Source: Escherichia phage UPEC06. From it: a stretch of DNA of 64,000 nucleotides. A program made the position numbers and the translations under genes. This document shows, in pieces, positions 5,251 through 61,313 of the stretch (within the stretch, counting starts at the first letter, position 1; every line of letters starts with the position of its first letter). Under the pieces are notes generated by a model that was not told the DNA's origin, did no database searches, and worked only from the letters and a program-made list of their open reading frames with translations. The DNA is taken from the sequence record MW250786; one strand, written 5' to 3'.

Positions 5251-5691
5251 ATGTCTCGTGGCTATTTATTGTTAAGTCGTCGCAACCAGCTTATCCCTCG
5301 TATCGAGGTTGAAGGTCGCAGACGTTCTTATAAAAAGGTTGATTTGGATGACCCATTCGACAACGGTGGTCTGGAAATTGAATACACACCATTCACGGCT
5401 GTTGAGTGTGTCATTCAACCAATCCGAGGCAAAGCGCTTCGTGATCAAAACAACCAACTGACTACAGCAGGTGAGGAAGATTACGACTCCTATACTGTGT
5501 ATTCAGAAACTGTATTGTATCGTGCACAAGAAGGAACGGATAAACTTTCTGATCAATTGTGGCTTCCCAATTCTGTTGGTGAGAACAGTTGGTTTACAGT
5601 AATGAAAGCTGACCGTTATCCAAGTGCAGGCAACATGAGATATCGTTACTATCTGATCGCTGTACCTGTTGGAACAGAGGGTGGATTATAA
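5251..5691 (+). CDS. hypothetical protein (neck module by position)
   Basis: ATG preceded by AAGGAGG; ATGA overlap with next gene. Confidence 0.5.
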   Translation: MSRGYLLLSRRNQLIPRIEVEGRRRSYKKVDLDDPFDNGGLEIEYTPFTAVECVIQPIRGKALRDQNNQLTTAGEEDYDSYTVYSETVLYRAQEGTDKLSDQLWLPNSVGENSWFTVMKADRYPSAGNMRYRYYLIAVPVGTEGGL

Positions 5692-6350
5692 TGGATCAAT
5701 TGCCTAATGAGTTTACAAACTCCGACGAGATTATGGGCAATCTCACAAGGGTTATCGGTCGTCTCTTGAAAGACGTAACCACTTACAAGGTGGTTGAAGC
5801 TGGTGAAACAATCCCTAAAGTTGAGGGACCATTCATCCTCGTAGACCTATCAGATTTAAGCCCTCTCGATTGGGAAACAAATCAGATTGTTGAGAATGGT
5901 ATCACCCACACTGTTCACAACTACACTGCAACATACACACTCACCGCATATCGTGGAAAACCTCACTGGGCATTGACTCGTTTTCATCAGGCATTGAGCC
6001 TTGCATGGATAAGAGATAAATACTTCCCTGTCGGATCACCTTATGCTTACTCGTCCACTTCTTCTATTGCAAGATTAAGAATTCCCCTTAATGAGCAATA
6101 TTACGAAAACAGGGCAAGGGTACTGATTACCTTTAACGTTACATTCGTTGAAAGTGACTTCGGTCAGTTTGAAAATATCGAAAGCATCATTATCGACACT
6201 AGTGTTTCAGATCCCTCTGGAAACAAGATCGAAAATGAAGCCCTTATCGATATCAACGTCAAACCAGGTGGTGATGGTCCTAGTATCCCGCCAGAACCGG
6301 ATATTCCTTTCACTTACATCGATACTATCGTTACTGTAAACGAGAAGTAA
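5691..6350 (+). CDS. hypothetical protein (possible tail completion/terminator protein by position)
   Basis: ORF immediately upstream of putative sheath gene. Confidence 0.45.
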   Translation: MDQLPNEFTNSDEIMGNLTRVIGRLLKDVTTYKVVEAGETIPKVEGPFILVDLSDLSPLDWETNQIVENGITHTVHNYTATYTLTAYRGKPHWALTRFHQALSLAWIRDKYFPVGSPYAYSSTSSIARLRIPLNEQYYENRARVLITFNVTFVESDFGQFENIESIIIDTSVSDPSGNKIENEALIDINVKPGGDGPSIPPEPDIPFTYIDTIVTVNEK

Positions 6351-6391
6351 ATCCGGTTATTGATAGGCCCACGCTTATCAGTGACAAATGA

Positions 6392-6405
6392 GGGGCTTCG
6401 GCCCC
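6392..6405 (+). terminator. UUCG hairpin, terminator/attenuator-like
   Basis: GGGGC-TTCG-GCCCC; weak U-tract. Confidence 0.35.
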
Positions 6406-6461
6406 TAATCAATTGGCACTTCCGGTGCTAGTCAATAATCGTCTAGAAGCAGAGGATAAAC

Positions 6462-7877
6462 ATGGCTTATGAAGATAAGGTAGTTGACGTCGAGGTAACT
6501 CTTGGCACTCAACCTATTGATACCGTAGGGTTTGAAACCCCAATGTTCTTAGCAGTACACAACAACTTCCCTGAACGTCTCCGTCTGTACGGGTCTTTGG
6601 AAAGTCTGGTTGGTGATGGATTTGCAGTTGGTTCCGCAGCGCATCAGTTTGCATCCAATGCATTTGGCGGTTCTTTTGCTCCGCAACTGGTGGCTATTGG
6701 TCGTATGTCTATGTCGGGTTCTCGAATCGACTTTACTGGCACTACCAATACCGAACGTGTTGTTGTAAATATTACCATCAATAAGGTTGTTAAAGCAATC
6801 ACCATTTTGGTTAACGTTGGAAACACCCCTGGTCAGATCGCAACCGCTCTGGCAGAAGGCATTAACAACGATGCGGATTTGGCTGGTCGCGTTACTGCAA
6901 CTGTTGAAGGTGGTGTCGTCGTTGTTGTACAATCCGCAGAAATTATCAGCGTAGGAAAAGGCGAAGGTAATTACAAGATTGTAAACACCTCTGTTGAAAC
7001 TGTTGCAACTGTTCTTCCGCAGGTACTTGCTGAAAACCACAACTGGTACTTCCTGTCTCACGAACAACGTTCTGATGCAGATATCGTTGCAGCGGCTGAA
7101 TTTGCACAAGCCAATTATAAACTGCACGTATATAATTCCAGTGACAGCGATGCTCTGGCAGCAGCTAACCAAAGCGCTTCCGTGTTTGATACACTGAAAG
7201 CTCTGGGTTACAACTCTCTGGGTACTTACGACAAAGAAGCGGATGTAGAATTCACCGAAGGTTCTGTTATCGGTGCAATGGCTGCCAACGATCCTTCTTA
7301 CGGTGACTCTATTCACCTGAAGACAATGCCTGGCATGAAGCCTTCTACCATCTCCGAAACTCAGCGTAGCAACGCTTGGGGACGTAACGCAAACATCTAT
7401 CGTGCAATGTACGGCACTAACAGCTACATCGAAGGTCGTACCTCCAGCGGTCAGTATGTTGACGTTATTCGTTTCTCCCATTGGCTGAAATTTCGCATGG
7501 AAGAATCTGTATTCGGATACATGAAGCGTCGTTCTGATCAAGGCCAGTCCATGAAGATGAGTGATGAAGATCTTCCGGTTCTGCGTTCTATCCTGTTCAA
7601 TAATCCAATCAACATCGGTATTCGTAACGGTGGTATTCTGACTGGTTATGATACAGTGAACCGTGTGAGCTACGATCCAATCATTACTATTCCTCGTCGT
7701 GCTGAAATTCCAAGCAACGACTTGGCTAACCGTATCCTGCGTGATGTTAAAGTTGAAGTAGTTTACAACAACTCCCTGCACTACGTTAAAATTCGCGCTG
7801 CTGTTGTTCTGGATCGTCCTCAAACTACGACCCAAAGCACTCAGACTTCTTTCACTACTTCTTCTGTAGGGGTGTAA
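6462..7877 (+). CDS. putative tail sheath protein
   Basis: 471 aa; position in the order sheath-tube-chaperones-tape measure; strong AGAGGA RBS. Confidence 0.5.
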   Translation: MAYEDKVVDVEVTLGTQPIDTVGFETPMFLAVHNNFPERLRLYGSLESLVGDGFAVGSAAHQFASNAFGGSFAPQLVAIGRMSMSGSRIDFTGTTNTERVVVNITINKVVKAITILVNVGNTPGQIATALAEGINNDADLAGRVTATVEGGVVVVVQSAEIISVGKGEGNYKIVNTSVETVATVLPQVLAENHNWYFLSHEQRSDADIVAAAEFAQANYKLHVYNSSDSDALAAANQSASVFDTLKALGYNSLGTYDKEADVEFTEGSVIGAMAANDPSYGDSIHLKTMPGMKPSTISETQRSNAWGRNANIYRAMYGTNSYIEGRTSSGQYVDVIRFSHWLKFRMEESVFGYMKRRSDQGQSMKMSDEDLPVLRSILFNNPINIGIRNGGILTGYDTVNRVSYDPIITIPRRAEIPSNDLANRILRDVKVEVVYNNSLHYVKIRAAVVLDRPQTTTQSTQTSFTTSSVGV

Positions 7878-31260: not shown

Positions 31261-31533
31261 TTAGATATAGTCTACACCAGCTTGTTCCAACAAGTCAAGC
31301 CTTAATTTAAGTTCTTTTTCACGATAGTCGGAAACAAGTTTATCCTTTTTCTTTTCTTCTTCTTCGAACTGGTCGAGTGGAAGAATACGAATAATGTGTT
31401 CTGCCTTCATGTAGGATGTTGATCCGATAAGCTGAACATTACCATTTGGCAGCAGTCGGCCTTTGATCACCCGATAACGAGGAAACAGATCATATTTGAC
31501 GATTGCTGTAACTGCCATATTACTCATGTGCAT
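31261..31533 (-). CDS. hypothetical small protein
   Basis: ORF in operon. Confidence 0.35.
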   Translation of the reverse strand: MHMSNMAVTAIVKYDLFPRYRVIKGRLLPNGNVQLIGSTSYMKAEHIIRILPLDQFEEEEKKKDKLVSDYREKELKLRLDLLEQAGVDYI

Positions 31534-31846
31534 TCTCCATGTCAGAAATTCGATCTTCTACCCAACCACGACGGTAAATGTTGAGGTAAGATTTACCTTT
31601 TGAACCATGATGGGCATATTCGTCAAAATCAAAATCGAAAGGTGTCTCGGTGTTAAGACCTGCGTCAAAGAATTGATTCTTCATTTCGAATTGCACTTTC
31701 ATGTCTGGATCATTTTTACCCAGGAATGAGGACAAATTAAAACAAAGGCCAGCGCCTCGGTAAAAAGCACCATCTTTTGGTGCACCAATGTCTAACCATT
31801 TCTTATATTCCTTGTAGAAATTCAGAAGTTGCGGACTGCTTTTCAT
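31520..31846 (-). CDS. hypothetical protein
   Basis: Internal ATG at 31846 preceded by GAGGAG preferred over track start 31897. Confidence 0.4.
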   Translation of the reverse strand: MKSSPQLLNFYKEYKKWLDIGAPKDGAFYRGAGLCFNLSSFLGKNDPDMKVQFEMKNQFFDAGLNTETPFDFDFDEYAHHGSKGKSYLNIYRRGWVEDRISDMENAHE

Positions 31847-31979
31847 TTTGTTCTCCTCATTTGTTTTGATAGGACTACTATAACATAGTCCTATCAACTT
31901 GTATACTATTTAATTAAAGATTTTATGAATGCTTGGTAGGACCCTTCTTTACATACCCATCTGGATAATAAAAATCATC

Positions 31980-32357
31980 TTATACTCCAAATGTGGATTT
32001 GATTTCAGCAATAACCTCATGCACATTGTTTTCGTTTACTTCAAATGTGTAGGACGTTGGTTTAAGGAACGTCTGAGGTGAAACATTAACAAAGAATTCA
32101 AATTCATCATCAAAAATTTCAAAGTATTTTCCCGGTGTTGATTCTTGACTTTTGAAAACAGAACCATCTTCCATAGTAACAGAAGAAACAGATTTTTCAC
32201 CAAGGGTGTATGTTTTTAACTCATCAACAACGAAACTAGGACCGTGACGACGTAGTATTTCAACCATAGTTCGGTTGGCCCCGCAAATACCTGCCCGCTT
32301 AATAAATAACTCTTCACACCGAGGATTGAGAATATAAGTTTTTCCTACTTGCATCAT
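31980..32357 (-). CDS. hypothetical protein, paralog family member 3
   Basis: N-terminal MQVGKTYILNP and C-terminal IKSTF shared with two upstream genes. Confidence 0.5.
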   Translation of the reverse strand: MMQVGKTYILNPRCEELFIKRAGICGANRTMVEILRRHGPSFVVDELKTYTLGEKSVSSVTMEDGSVFKSQESTPGKYFEIFDDEFEFFVNVSPQTFLKPTSYTFEVNENNVHEVIAEIKSTFGV

Positions 32358-32367
32358 AACAACCCCC

Positions 32368-32727
32368 TTATGATAAGTTAAATGTGGATTTGATCAGGTC
32401 GATAGTTTCTTGTGCGTTTTGCTCAGATACTGACACCTGGATAATTTTAAGATCACTGACCTCTTCGAAGTATTTGAACTCGGATTCACGAAGTTCAAAG
32501 TACATTGCCCCGCAGCCCACACTGAATGAATCACACCCTACAGCACCATCTTCTGTTGTGATGTTATTAACATACATATCACCTTCGATCATACTCATGT
32601 TGTTAACAATAAATCGCGGCCCGTGCTCATCCAGAAAAGAAACAATCTCGTGATTGTAACTTGGGTCAGCCTTAATAAATTCTTCCACGAATTTTGGATT
32701 AAGTTTATAAGTTTTACCCACTTCCAT
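32368..32727 (-). CDS. hypothetical protein, paralog family member 2
   Basis: MEVGKTYKLNP...NAQETIDLIKSTFNL; AAGGAGAA RBS. Confidence 0.5.
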   Translation of the reverse strand: MEVGKTYKLNPKFVEEFIKADPSYNHEIVSFLDEHGPRFIVNNMSMIEGDMYVNNITTEDGAVGCDSFSVGCGAMYFELRESEFKYFEEVSDLKIIQVSVSEQNAQETIDLIKSTFNLS

Positions 32728-32738
32728 TTTTGTTCTCC

Positions 32739-33113
32739 TTACGCTAGGTTAAAGGTAGCTTTAATCAAGTCTACGGTTTCTTGTGCATTACTACGAGAGA
32801 CGGCAACTTGAACGATAACAGGATCTTCATCTTCCCCGACTTCTTTAAAGAAGGGAAATTCACTCTCTGCAAGTTCAAAGTATACACCCTTGTTACATTC
32901 GCAGCCGTGAAGACTGTCACTACCTAAAGTACCATCTTCAAATATGACATTGTTAACGTATGTAACATTATCATAAACGTGGGTGGTGTTGACAACAAAT
33001 TTAGGACCGTGTTTATAAAGAAGGTCAGCCAATTCTTGATTGTAGCTAGGGTCCATATTGATAAAAGCTTTTTCTAAGTCTTGATTAAGAATGTAAGTTT
33101 TTCCGATTTCCAT
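32739..33113 (-). CDS. hypothetical protein, paralog family member 1
   Basis: MEIGKTYILNQ...NAQETVDLIKATFNL; start at 33113 with GAGGAG (track start 33200 is too far upstream). Confidence 0.5.
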   Translation of the reverse strand: MEIGKTYILNQDLEKAFINMDPSYNQELADLLYKHGPKFVVNTTHVYDNVTYVNNVIFEDGTLGSDSLHGCECNKGVYFELAESEFPFFKEVGEDEDPVIVQVAVSRSNAQETVDLIKATFNLA

Positions 33114-33192
33114 CTTTGTTCTCCTCTTCAGTTGATGGATACATCTTAGTTGATGTGGATATGTCTTGTCAATAGCTTTTTGCACATAAAAG

Positions 33193-33218
33193 AAAACCAC
33201 CCCGAAGGGTGGTTTAAA
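33193..33218 (-). terminator. intrinsic terminator downstream of DNA polymerase gene
   Basis: On - strand: AACCACCC-TTCG-GGGTGGTT followed by TTCTTTT. Confidence 0.55.
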
Positions 33219-33221
33219 TTA

Positions 33222-35852
33222 TCAGTGGCACGCCCCCCAGTTCATCCCTGTGAGGTATTCACCTGTTATGTGTACAGGAGATTTCATCATTCGTGCTGCT
33301 TGCTCTACACAACGAACAACCATCTCTCCAACTGGACAATACATGATCGTGTAGATTCCATTCTCATCAGGATCACACTTAAACTTCCCTTCTTTCACAC
33401 AATGACCATCCAAGATCATTTTCTTAGCCAAGCAAGCTTCTACAAATTTCTTCGCGTCAGCTTCGTTGTCAAAGGTCCAAGTCTTCTTGAACTTGTGCGG
33501 CACTTCAAGCTGGTATTCATCATGATAGTAAATGATACGGCGAACACCCTCATCATACCAACCTTTCTTGACCAACTGCCAGTGCAGGAGGATACCCACC
33601 AAGTCAAACAGTGCAGCACCACCATTCTGCTGATAAGCATTAAGCAATGAGTGTTTGGAACGAGTGTAGATCTTACGTCCATCAAGACCGTAGATGAATC
33701 GCTTACCGTTAGCTTCCCAAAACTTCTCTAATGCTTCTTTACGACCTTTCAAGCCGATGTTGCTATCCCAGAATGCGTCGATTACTGCCTGGGCTTTCTC
33801 AAGAGTGATTCCCAGCATTGATGCAATCTTCGCCGCCTGCGCCCCGTACATGATTCCGTATGTCACGCCTTTACCTTCACCACGAGAAACCTTCTTCCCT
33901 GCCGCTTTGGTATACGCTTCTGCGTTTCGGGAGTGAGCATCTCCAGATTCCATGATACGAAGATAAGCGCCACCATCGAAATCATACGCGCCCCATGCCG
34001 CGATCATACCTTCCAAGTTTGAACCGTCGATACCTACCTGATATTTACCCTCGGAGGCTCTAAACAGTTCACGCATCTCTTTACCGAGAAGAACTTTCTC
34101 ATCCGGCTTAGGTACGTTTGCTACGATCGTATGCTTACGACGACCTGTGTTAGTTATTCCACTATAACGGGCCGGAAGTTTACCGTCAACCCGTAGACGT
34201 GGATGGTTAAGCCATCCGGTATCAACCTTCTCTTCTTTCAGTGGGTCAAGAACAGATCGTCGGTTACGTAAAGACAGCCATTTAACAATCTGTTTAGCCA
34301 TTTCACCATCTACTCGCTCAAGGTTAGGGCAAAGACCCTGCTGATCCTTAAGTTGTGGAGATGTTGGTAATGCACGGGCTTTCTTACGGAAGAACTTGAA
34401 CATCTTTTCTTTATCGGACCACTGTTTAGGGGTGATCGATAAGCTTTTCAGAATCAGATCACGATACTCCGTCTGATCCAAATCTTCAATATATTGACGA
34501 ACAATCAGGTCAACCTCACTATCTGGACGTTGTTTCTTGAACTGATCTTTAGTTGCATCCTTTGTACGCCAAATTGTTGGAATCCACCCTGCATCACGGA
34601 TCAGGAACTTCTTAACGTCGTCCTGGTTACCAATACGCATCGGGATCATAATGTCCGGCATCTTTTGTTCTTTGATATCCATCAAAGCACGAGCCATATC
34701 TTCCGGCGGCAAAGGAACAAGCCCTTGCTGCTTAACGTTTTGTGCACGGATAAAATCACCCATTTTGGATTCATCTTCTACACCGTGTTCAACACAATAC
34801 TTGATCGCGGCGGCAGTAAGAGATCCGTCAGCCTTAAACGGCTTACTTGGTGCACCTTTAAACTCTAATGCTTCCCAATTGATATTATAACCTAACTTCT
34901 CTAACCATTTCCAACCTGTACCGGAAAGAGATCCATCACCCTTGAAAGGCTTAGATGGGAATGTCGGTTGTGCTGATTTCGACATTTCTTTCTTCGGTAA
35001 CTTAGGTTCAACCTCTAACTCAATGTCTGTCATCATCTTATCGATACGATCACGGAGCTTGAGTGCTTTTTCTTCATCAAATGAAACACCCTGAATCTCT
35101 TGCTCAATCATCAGGTAGTCGGTCAGCATACCTCGACGCAAGGCATTCTTCCAGTTGATCATTTTAAACTTCTTCTGATCTTTGTCTGTTTCATCCTTAA
35201 ACATGAAGCGTTTATCATCGGGCATGGATTCACAAGAGATCTCTTTCATCAGAGCATCCCACACCATTTCGTTGATAATTACGTCTTCAATAATACGATC
35301 GCAATATTTCCAAAGTGGAAGGCCACGCCAATCTTCAATCGCCACTTTCTGGTTGGCTACTCGCATACCCCAAGCTTCAAGCCCGTGAGGGCCTACAGGC
35401 TTCATTTTACCTGTGACTGGGTTCTTTACCATCTCGGGACAACCACGAGGCAGAGGGCGATCTGGATACAATGTACGAGACATTGACAGTGTATCAAAGA
35501 TGGTCACTTGTTTACCATTAATCGTACCCATGCAACCAGGGTCTGCAAACATATCGTAAGTTGTTCCAAGCATCTTCTTAAACAACTGGAGGTCGTAGCC
35601 GAAGATGTTGTGGATAGCAATTGCCTTAGGCTCTGTGACAAACCATTCGTTTAATTCTTCAATAGTGCGAATCTTAAAGTTTTTACCTTTAGATTGGATA
35701 AATTTAACAGCTTGATCGTAACCTTCCCGTTGGGGATCAAGAAAGATGTTCCAGTTATCTTTTTTATACTCTTTAAACAGGACGCAGTGAATGAGATCAA
35801 CCTCTGTCAACAGGCCGTTAGCTTCCGCATCTCCAATAAATAAGCCTTTCAT
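33222..35852 (-). CDS. family A DNA polymerase with 3'-5' exonuclease domain
   Basis: Exo motif FIGDAEANGL; pol motif A DGSNLEGMI, motif B KGVTYGIMYGAQ, motif C YYHDEY; start at 35852 with AAGGAGA. Confidence 0.85.
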   Translation of the reverse strand: MKGLFIGDAEANGLLTEVDLIHCVLFKEYKKDNWNIFLDPQREGYDQAVKFIQSKGKNFKIRTIEELNEWFVTEPKAIAIHNIFGYDLQLFKKMLGTTYDMFADPGCMGTINGKQVTIFDTLSMSRTLYPDRPLPRGCPEMVKNPVTGKMKPVGPHGLEAWGMRVANQKVAIEDWRGLPLWKYCDRIIEDVIINEMVWDALMKEISCESMPDDKRFMFKDETDKDQKKFKMINWKNALRRGMLTDYLMIEQEIQGVSFDEEKALKLRDRIDKMMTDIELEVEPKLPKKEMSKSAQPTFPSKPFKGDGSLSGTGWKWLEKLGYNINWEALEFKGAPSKPFKADGSLTAAAIKYCVEHGVEDESKMGDFIRAQNVKQQGLVPLPPEDMARALMDIKEQKMPDIMIPMRIGNQDDVKKFLIRDAGWIPTIWRTKDATKDQFKKQRPDSEVDLIVRQYIEDLDQTEYRDLILKSLSITPKQWSDKEKMFKFFRKKARALPTSPQLKDQQGLCPNLERVDGEMAKQIVKWLSLRNRRSVLDPLKEEKVDTGWLNHPRLRVDGKLPARYSGITNTGRRKHTIVANVPKPDEKVLLGKEMRELFRASEGKYQVGIDGSNLEGMIAAWGAYDFDGGAYLRIMESGDAHSRNAEAYTKAAGKKVSRGEGKGVTYGIMYGAQAAKIASMLGITLEKAQAVIDAFWDSNIGLKGRKEALEKFWEANGKRFIYGLDGRKIYTRSKHSLLNAYQQNGGAALFDLVGILLHWQLVKKGWYDEGVRRIIYYHDEYQLEVPHKFKKTWTFDNEADAKKFVEACLAKKMILDGHCVKEGKFKCDPDENGIYTIMYCPVGEMVVRCVEQAARMMKSPVHITGEYLTGMNWGACH

Positions 35853-35925
35853 TTTTTCTCCTTCTTTAAACTCCAACTAGACTAAAACAAAGCCCAGCCG
35901 GAGGTATTACCCTTCGGCTAGGTTA

Positions 35926-60692: not shown

Positions 60693-61313
60693 ATGGCTAT
60701 CTATGCAAAACTGAAAGAAAGTAAGAAAAGTTATTTTATTTCAATGGACCCATCTAACCGACGTATGATTGAAAATCATGGTGATCGCTTCATTGTACGA
60801 CCTTCCGAGAATAACGATTCTTACTTACGTCCGGTGGGTCCACGTATTGAGGGTCAGTTCTTAACATCCCGAGATATCGAAGAGTATTTTACATTCTTCC
60901 CTGAATGGTCAGCAGAGTCAGCAGAATACATCGTTAACCTAGCGATCCCAAGGGGTAGCGTTGCTATTGATGATCAGTATCTGCTGGGGGATAAATGGGG
61001 TGACTACAAGATCAAAACAAGTCATCCAAATATGTGGCGACTGTATAACTCCGATAATCCTGACGATTATGTTATGCTTAAGCAAAGTAATTTGGAGAAA
61101 TACTTCACCTTACAGGAAGATAGCTTAAAGAAAGCATTGGCTAAGTTTGACAATTACACACCTGCACCTGTAGAAAAAGAACAGGAAGTTGTAGATACGG
61201 ATGTTTTTGAATTGAAGATTAAACGCACAGTAAGGGTTAAGGATGCAGAAATCACAGAGGACAATCTGGATCAGTTCATTGCACAGCTTACTAAACTGGT
61301 TAAAGGAGAATAA
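60693..61313 (+). CDS. hypothetical protein
   Basis: AGGAGAAAG RBS. Confidence 0.45.
   Translation: MAIYAKLKESKKSYFISMDPSNRRMIENHGDRFIVRPSENNDSYLRPVGPRIEGQFLTSRDIEEYFTFFPEWSAESAEYIVNLAIPRGSVAIDDQYLLGDKWGDYKIKTSHPNMWRLYNSDNPDDYVMLKQSNLEKYFTLQEDSLKKALAKFDNYTPAPVEKEQEVVDTDVFELKIKRTVRVKDAEITEDNLDQFIAQLTKLVKGE

Follow-up and report, generated by a model that had tools for sequence, protein, structure and literature searches.

The best-described relatives of the genes considered here come from T4 and its kin. The Frd.2 family (Pfam PF03197, FRD2) is described as conserved throughout the Tevenvirinae, in an account that mentions neither Vequintavirinae nor tandem copies (PMC12152347), and the N-terminal domains of Frd.2, GoF and MotB.1 have been described as LSm-like (PMC12152347, Kim et al. 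2025). T4-type phages also carry promoter-early stem-loop (PeSL) cassettes (PMC2839356, PMC4122927), whose promoter consensus in T4/PST is TTTACW-N17-TAYWAT (PMC4122927). We analysed a stretch of 64,000 nucleotides (nt) of Escherichia phage UPEC06 (record MW250786), called the window below and classified by megablast as Vequintavirinae (rV5-like), in which three small genes, A, B and C, follow each other on the minus strand. They almost certainly form a three-gene operon encoding strongly acidic Frd.2-family proteins of about 120 amino acids (aa), with a predicted SH3/FeoA-like barrel that places them in the fold superfamily of T4 Frd.2, GoF and MotB.1. Relative to the literature searched, what is new is the presence of FRD2 outside T4-like phages, the mixed ancestry of a three-gene array, and an element that marks the boundary of an exchange between Straboviridae and Vequintavirinae.

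Three FRD2 paralogues in tandem

The array consists of the following genes, listed in the order of transcription.

32739-33113, minus strand: FRD2 paralogue A, 124 aa, net charge -13
32368-32727, minus strand: FRD2 paralogue B, 119 aa, net charge -12
31980-32357, minus strand: FRD2 paralogue C, 125 aa, net charge -5, placed in a separate FRD2 lineage (Mosigvirus type)

All three are new members of a known, uncharacterised family. Their scores against PF03197 (65.0, 73.1 and 71.9 bits for A, B and C) lie well above the gathering threshold of 29 bits, and they cover nearly the whole profile of phrog_622 (E 1e-20, 2e-20 and 5e-23), the PHROG to which T4 frd.2 is assigned in the CRISPRi-ART annotation table. 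Frd.2 of the RB32/T4 type aligns with them over its full length at 30-38% identity. We aligned 33 family members, every one of which matches PF03197, and about 17 residues were invariant or nearly so; Y7, N25, G36, F39, E83, F87, N104 and F116 are invariant in this alignment and kept in A, B and C.

A preliminary description of this DNA had taken the three adjacent open reading frames (ORFs) at 31980-33113 for diverged tandem paralogues, and this is what they are. Pairwise BLASTP gave 52% identity between A and B (E 1e-42), 37% between B and C (E 7e-20) and 34% between A and C (E 5e-19), and the similarity, far from being confined to a few residues, runs end to end, with HGPxFVV, EDG and YFE[LI]..EF..F.[EN]V as common internal motifs. 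The middles of the proteins, which had been called divergent, are therefore not especially so. The terminal motifs first noticed are indeed related, but less uniform than described: NAQETxDLIKxTFNL ends only A and B, C having the related NVHEVIAEIKSTFGV, and the N-terminal M-x-x-GKTY-x-LNP reads LNQ in A.

The gaps between the ORFs measure 11 and 10 nt, and every ORF has its own ribosome-binding site (RBS), as had been claimed: the Shine-Dalgarno sequences are AAGAGGAG for A (33121-33128, 7 nt 5' of the ATG), AAGGAG for B and AAGGGGG for C. A longer A of 153 aa, starting from a GTG at 33200, appears in the ORF list and in the GenBank annotation of the related phage A73. We favour the ATG at 33113 because of the RBS at 33121-33128 and because a hairpin and a promoter-like site lie inside the GTG extension. 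The features between the trio and the gene upstream of it are these.

33222-35876, minus strand: gene of a family A DNA polymerase (PF00476), upstream of the trio
33194-33215, minus strand: terminator-like hairpin AAACCACCC-TTCG-GGGTGGTTT followed by a T-run, directly 3' of the polymerase stop codon, found by consensus scan
33143-33172, minus strand: sigma70-type promoter-like site TTGACA-N18-TAAGAT, 10/12 consensus matches

The position downstream of a DNA polymerase, noted at the outset, is thus borne out. The same locus was found at 93-96% identity in five phage records (A73, W70, A7_1, A5-4 and vB_EcoM-LTH01, hereafter LTH01), and an 81.6-kb public contig has an identical protein B in the same gene order. 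The hairpin is GC-rich and its stem is kept in A73 and LTH01, where the changes are only central (CCCTTCGGGG vs CCCCGAAGGG); it would act as a terminator. A73 and LTH01 share both hexamers of the promoter-like site with the window, without a change, and on this consensus match the trio probably constitutes its own sigma70-type transcription unit, started from the putative promoter at 33143-33172. In A7_1 and A5-4 the equivalent stretch is replaced by an upstream ORF of 58 aa.

A structure prediction, one of the checks proposed for the trio, gave a confident result. The AlphaFold2 model of B, built on the 33-sequence alignment (predicted local distance difference test, pLDDT, 91.5; predicted template modelling score, pTM, 0.73), shows a small five-stranded beta-barrel. 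Its elements follow in the order beta1, two helices, beta2-beta5, a short helix and a strand, a variable linker and a conserved C-terminal helix, and the strands of the barrel are residues 6-9, 38-47, 50-58, 63-65 and ~74-79. When the model was compared by Foldseek with the viral models of BFVD, 52 matches were obtained at E<=1e-3; every named one came from a T4-like phage, GoF (E 3.6e-4) and T4 MotB.1 (P39415, E 7.2e-4) among them. At the level of predicted models, this reproduces the Frd.2/GoF/MotB.1 superfamily proposed earlier (PMC12152347). No match at E<=1e-3 was found by Foldseek in the PDB, and a search of PDB sequences with the FRD2 profile returned nothing below E 0.9. In these searches, the modelled barrel came out nearer to domains of the FeoA, SH3 and Tudor types than to Hfq/Sm, and it looks like a generic small barrel of the SH3/FeoA type rather than an LSm domain specifically. 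The whole family is acidic, with a median net charge of -11 and a median isoelectric point (pI) of 4.5 (range 4.2-5.3, maximum 5.27).

Among the homologues examined, FRD2 genes are nearly restricted to T4-like phages. In a tblastn search of 50,697 phage records, 549 had FRD2; 5 of these are Vequintavirinae, with three places each. The other 544 showed less than 60% identity, and all those sampled were T4-like, with genomes of 160-190 kb (one 99-kb record among them) and mostly one copy, sometimes two. A word-indexed protein search with C gave only three proteins, and an exhaustive hidden Markov model (HMM) search of 1.84 billion representative proteins was used instead; it yielded 37 clusters, 31 of them composed of single-domain proteins of 112-138 aa. 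At the T4-like loci inspected FRD2 stands just after gene 32, in the order gp32-(frd.3)-FRD2, two loci having two copies, and the metagenomic contexts examined were likewise T4-like and adjoined gp32. The trio departs from this typical place in the gene 32-frd interval, since it follows a family A DNA polymerase.

Among the candidates of the search, the giant cadherin/RTX-repeat proteins P0023, P0034, P0036, P0038 and P0039 were rejected as FRD2 homologues. These bacterial matches reach E values as good as 8e-13 by way of 3-10 weak repeats at profile positions ~41-121; P0023, for example, is a protein of 3099 aa with 10 stretches that match the FRD2 profile, and the Pfam domains of the group are Cadherin, He_PIG and RTX. 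We judge the match to be an artefact, incompletely explained, in which a short recurrent motif (...FFELRG..LYF...PDFE) is summed over the repeats.

One further ORF of the window touches on the same fold.

60693-61313, plus strand: 206-aa ORF, probable distant relative of the FRD2 N-terminal barrel

When the ORFs of the window were searched by HMM, it matched in two pieces (E 1.5e-6); the probability from hhalign was 88% over residues 6-77, after which come an insertion of about 60 residues and a weakly matching C-terminal part. No Pfam family matched, and the match in PHROG was weak (phrog_11121, E 0.0012). From its sequence, this protein may be a fourth member of the superfamily in this genome.

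Origin of the array and probable exchange at its downstream end

The phylogeny does not support a triplication of one gene in place. In neighbour-joining trees, A and B form a clade (96.5-99% bootstrap) and C groups with Mosigvirus-type T4-like FRD2 (97%), while monophyly of A, B and C was recovered in 0/100 and 0/200 replicates; triplication in situ was rejected on this ground. The duplication that separated A from B is old, because synonymous sites between the paralogues are saturated. In LTH01 the third gene groups, with 92% bootstrap, with the upstream one of the Mosigvirus paralogues.

The downstream end of the array carries a short intergenic element, whose parts and surroundings are as follows.

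31840-31924, minus strand: T4-type promoter/hairpin element, 85 nt, at the downstream end of the array
31905-31877, minus strand: promoter TATACA-N17-TATAGT with a TG extension, inside the 85-nt element
31868-31895, minus strand: hairpin core of 13 bp, -18.8 kcal/mol, z -4.67
L005 2144-2230: counterpart of the 85-nt element
31520-31846, minus strand: 108-aa ORF of phrog_2510, just downstream of the 85-nt element

More than 200 T4-like records contain intergenic DNA that is 84-88% identical to the element, at 2-5 places per genome, and the counterpart in Mosigvirus LF82-31 sits between two tandem FRD2 genes. In the window it is present in a single copy, and it was found in 5/5 relatives. Its promoter matches 10/12 positions of the T4/PST PeSL consensus. 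We call it PeSL-like, and not a PeSL, because its hairpin overlaps the -10 box and is without a U-tract.

The comparison with LTH01 bears directly on this element. Going down the array, window and LTH01 are 90-100% identical to ~32325, then 0-70% identical down to ~31910, and again 82-100% identical exactly at the element. The third gene of LTH01, together with the element, has 74-76% nucleotide identity to T4-like FRD2 loci over about 440 nt. Judging from these alignments, the LTH01 gene is a cassette replacement between the conserved 5' coding motif and the 85-nt element. At the same junction A5-4 has an extra ORF of 80 aa, which is 70% identical to an RB69-type ORF (labelled frd.3 in AY301284, and adjoining FRD2 in Mosigvirus-type genomes) and was otherwise found only in ten T4-like records. 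The window's own trio left no nucleotide-level trace in T4-like phages by blastn, the 85-nt element and the third gene of LTH01 being all that was recovered.

Taken as a whole, these observations, among them four independent links between the array and T4-like phages, make it likely that the FRD2 genes of this lineage were acquired from T4-like phages. A Vequintavirinae lineage would have received FRD2 from Mosigvirus-type T4-like phages of the same hosts; A and B would descend from an old duplication and C from a separate lineage; and the third slot would still be recombining between the 5' coding motif (M-x-x-GKTY-x-LNP) and the T4-type promoter/hairpin cassette. The flanking element is a concrete case of DNA exchange between two unrelated lytic coliphage families. 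A bolder proposal, which we regard as possible but tentative, is that FRD2 is a portable host-directed effector cassette, traded between Straboviridae and Vequintavirinae via PeSL-like elements and the 5' motif, with three specificities for a factor of enterobacteria that may belong to immunity or RNA metabolism. If this were true, PeSL-mediated modular shuffling would reach beyond T4-type phages, and Frd.2 would be a broadly useful takeover or anti-defence module.

The DNA around the array varies among relatives. In A7_1, at the equivalent of ~33114-33221 (L001 4428-5953), the polymerase and the trio are set apart by four additional ORFs. Two of them encode an HNH endonuclease (phrog_953, E 4e-58) and a phrog_4301 protein of 141 aa; the others are an ORF of 78 aa and the ORF of 58 aa mentioned above, which has a weak similarity to the C-terminal domain of T4 y05I (E 0.0016). 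The three smaller ones are also present between polymerase and trio in A5-4 (L003 4597-5548). In both phages the added ORFs take the place of the window's promoter and terminator stretch. In the more distant Vequintavirinae Certrevirus F2M1E and rV5, the polymerase is followed by unrelated small ORFs. Since the ORF content after the polymerase differs in this way among relatives, the region is a variable one and the trio is lineage-specific.

The polymerase gene itself is polymorphic. It is intact in the window and in A7_1 (884 aa), and split in two by an inserted ORF of ~165-170 aa in A73, A5-4 and LTH01, and in W70 as judged from a split match. The polymerase loci of relatives are the following.

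L002 3523-5601: polymerase locus
L003 (A5-4) 5631-7598: polymerase locus
L004 4458-7536: polymerase locus

Annotations of Cronobacter phage CR9 and Escherichia phage AV124 give the corresponding insert as an HNH endonuclease. The split has the look of an essential gene that is polymorphic for the insertion of a homing endonuclease. On the other side of the array, a T4-like origin was rejected for the ORF at 31520-31846. This phrog_2510 protein has homologues of 28-44% identity in many unrelated phages (Phapecoctavirus, and phages of Rhizobium, Erwinia, Klebsiella, Campylobacter and Pseudomonas), frequently with 2-8 places in one genome, and belongs to another multi-copy family of small proteins. 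No tRNA gene was found in the 64-kb window by ARAGORN, and no Rfam family at gathering threshold.

Selection and possible functions

The preliminary description had supposed that the trio encodes host-interaction or anti-defence proteins under diversifying selection. We calculated the ratio of nonsynonymous to synonymous substitution rates (dN/dS) by the Nei-Gojobori method for orthologues in five phages, whose synonymous divergence goes up to 0.29. The gene-wide ratios were 0.11-0.31 for A, 0.06-0.31 for B and 0.04-0.08 for C, with 0.02-0.08 for a neighbouring ORF. Values of 0.04-0.31 mean purifying selection, so that all three are constrained genes, and the supposed diversifying selection finds no support at the level of whole genes. 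There is one local hint of hypervariability, in the beta4-beta5 loop of A (residues 66-76), where 6/11 sites vary among orthologues vs 13/113 elsewhere (Fisher p 0.0017, for a loop picked post hoc and with small counts); B and C show no variation in this loop.

What might such proteins do? Our preferred reading, which we put forward as doubtful, is that they are early small barrel proteins, each of which binds a host factor and modulates gene expression or the fate of RNA during takeover, with three specificities. The trio would be transcribed early from its own sigma70-type promoter, and A, B and C would act separately, as small binding modules whose barrel binds a host macromolecule, a protein more probably than RNA. 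By analogy with the phenotype of a GoF mutant, the effect of binding would be to adjust the expression of host or phage genes or the fate of mRNA, and three diverged copies would provide three specificities. A host target is probable because purifying selection retains the family in two groups of phages whose machineries of replication and transcription are unrelated; indeed, import, duplication and constraint in another phage family argue for a host target and not for a T4-specific partner. Binding to protein is likelier than binding to RNA because the three proteins are uniformly acidic (net charge -5 to -13, pI 4.3-5.1). Separate action is in keeping with a linker-fused AlphaFold2 model of A-B-C, which reached only a pTM of 0.35 and a pLDDT of 66; a hetero-complex of the three was unsupported by this model, which is a weak test. 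In addition, a transcriptome-wide knock-down screen by CRISPRi-ART scored a single T4 gene without an assigned function as 'Fit', namely frd.2 (PMC11879866).

Several points weigh against this picture. The screen result is marginal, with a score of 0.83 (p 0.027) vs 3.29 for gene 32 (PMC11879866), and a T4 frd.2 amber mutant plates normally (PMC12152347). The FRD2 family is uncharacterised throughout, no member having an assigned function. An effect on mRNA stability belongs to the mutant GoF(D25Y) only, which stabilises an mRNA, whereas the only reporter assay performed showed no effect of wild-type GoF or MotB.1, Frd.2 not being among the proteins assayed (PMC12152347); as a consequence, the link to RNA metabolism hangs on a distant relative and its gain-of-function mutant. 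In structure, the neighbours of the barrel are generic small barrels with Z<=5.4, and early timing is read from consensus promoter matches. As to ancestry, the trees are neighbour-joining trees with bootstrap on proteins of about 120 aa, and a transfer in the direction from T4-like to rV5-like phages is deduced from distribution.

Another explanation is that each paralogue neutralises a different immune system, or a variant of one, and that the array diversifies in an arms race. Such a role would fit small, acidic, early proteins encoded in a hyperplastic region beside homing-endonuclease traffic, in a copy number above that of T4-like phages, with horizontal exchange, a whole-allele swap in LTH01 and variable sites clustered in one surface loop of A. 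However, the gene-wide dN/dS values just given, with C almost invariant, speak against it, and in T4-like phages FRD2 behaves in a more core-like way than anti-defence cargo usually does, being reported as conserved throughout the group (PMC12152347) and placed, at the loci examined, just downstream of gene 32. Moreover, a knock-down phenotype has been reported in a laboratory strain (PMC11879866), and neither experiments nor databases link any FRD2 member to a defence system: there was no anti-defence annotation in the Pfam and PHROG matches of A, B and C, nor in the literature that mentions frd.2. We consider this explanation unlikely.

Alternatively, the proteins could be RNA chaperones similar to LSm/Hfq, with a barrel that binds RNA and paralogues that assemble into a Sm-like hetero-oligomeric ring. 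The LSm-like label given to the N-termini of Frd.2, GoF and MotB.1, the effect of GoF(D25Y), the partly dimeric behaviour of GoF and MotB.1 (PMC12152347) and weak Foldseek matches to the Edc3 LSm domain all point this way. Nevertheless, we hold a chaperone ring to be quite improbable, given proteins of uniformly low pI (4.2-5.3), the absence of a confident assembly in the linked model (a weak negative) and the inactivity of the wild-type T4 proteins in the reporter assay.

It is also conceivable that the duplicated ORFs are functionless passengers, which persist only through shuffling by promoter/hairpin cassettes. The locus is indeed a recombination hot spot of variable content, and the amber mutant of T4 has a normal efficiency of plating. 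This is very improbable nonetheless: purifying selection acts on all three genes despite the synonymous divergence of the orthologues, ORFs and RBSs are intact in six genomes, and the nearly invariant residues run through all 33 aligned family members. Finally, that they serve as metal-transport or metal-regulation accessory proteins of the FeoA/DtxR kind, as the best structural neighbour would suggest, can hardly be entertained, since homology to FeoA was rejected at the sequence level (hhalign probability of 0.4% with E. coli FeoA), 0/33 FRD2 members match Pfam FeoA (PF04023) even at E<=5, there is neither a FeoB-like partner nor a metal-binding motif, and the cysteines in the loops of A and B are not conserved, even among orthologues.

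Small host-directed binding modules thus remain the reading that we prefer for the function of the trio. For the complete explanation, in which identity, origin and mechanism are blended, we see the chances as evenly balanced. The three natural variants and the allele swap of LTH01 provide material for comparative experiments on Frd.2. Altogether, we regard the locus as a useful lead and a good experimental handle on Frd.2, which does not change the current understanding of phage biology.

Comparison with known systems

The nearest solved structures are those of the FeoA/DtxR C-terminal SH3-like domain, which has the same order of strands and helices as the modelled B. This is an analogy of fold only, as no sequence or profile relationship was detectable. 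GoF (ComC-alpha) and MotB.1 share with the trio a predicted N-terminal small beta-barrel and are early and non-essential, and a weak match to the goF PHROG was obtained (E 0.022). They differ from it by their C-terminal parts, which are unlike, and by the lack of significant sequence similarity.

The element at the end of the array resembles the PeSL cassettes in combining a T4-type early promoter with a stable hairpin. It is multi-copy in T4-like genomes, and it lies exactly at the points where a gene has been replaced (LTH01) or inserted (A5-4) in close relatives. It differs from the PeSL cassettes in that the hairpin overlaps the spacer and the -10 box rather than preceding the promoter, in the A-rich tract that takes the place of a U-tract after the hairpin, and in its occurrence as one copy in the window and in a phage family other than that of T4.

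T4 Frd.2 belongs to the same family as the trio. Where T4-like phages have 1-2 copies between gene 32 and frd, three copies are found here after a family A DNA polymerase; yet the proteins have in common a length of about 120 aa, their acidity, a context of early-type promoters and the motifs GK.Y, N25, HG..F.V, DG, YFE[LI].E.EF..F.EV and NA.E.I.LIK..F.

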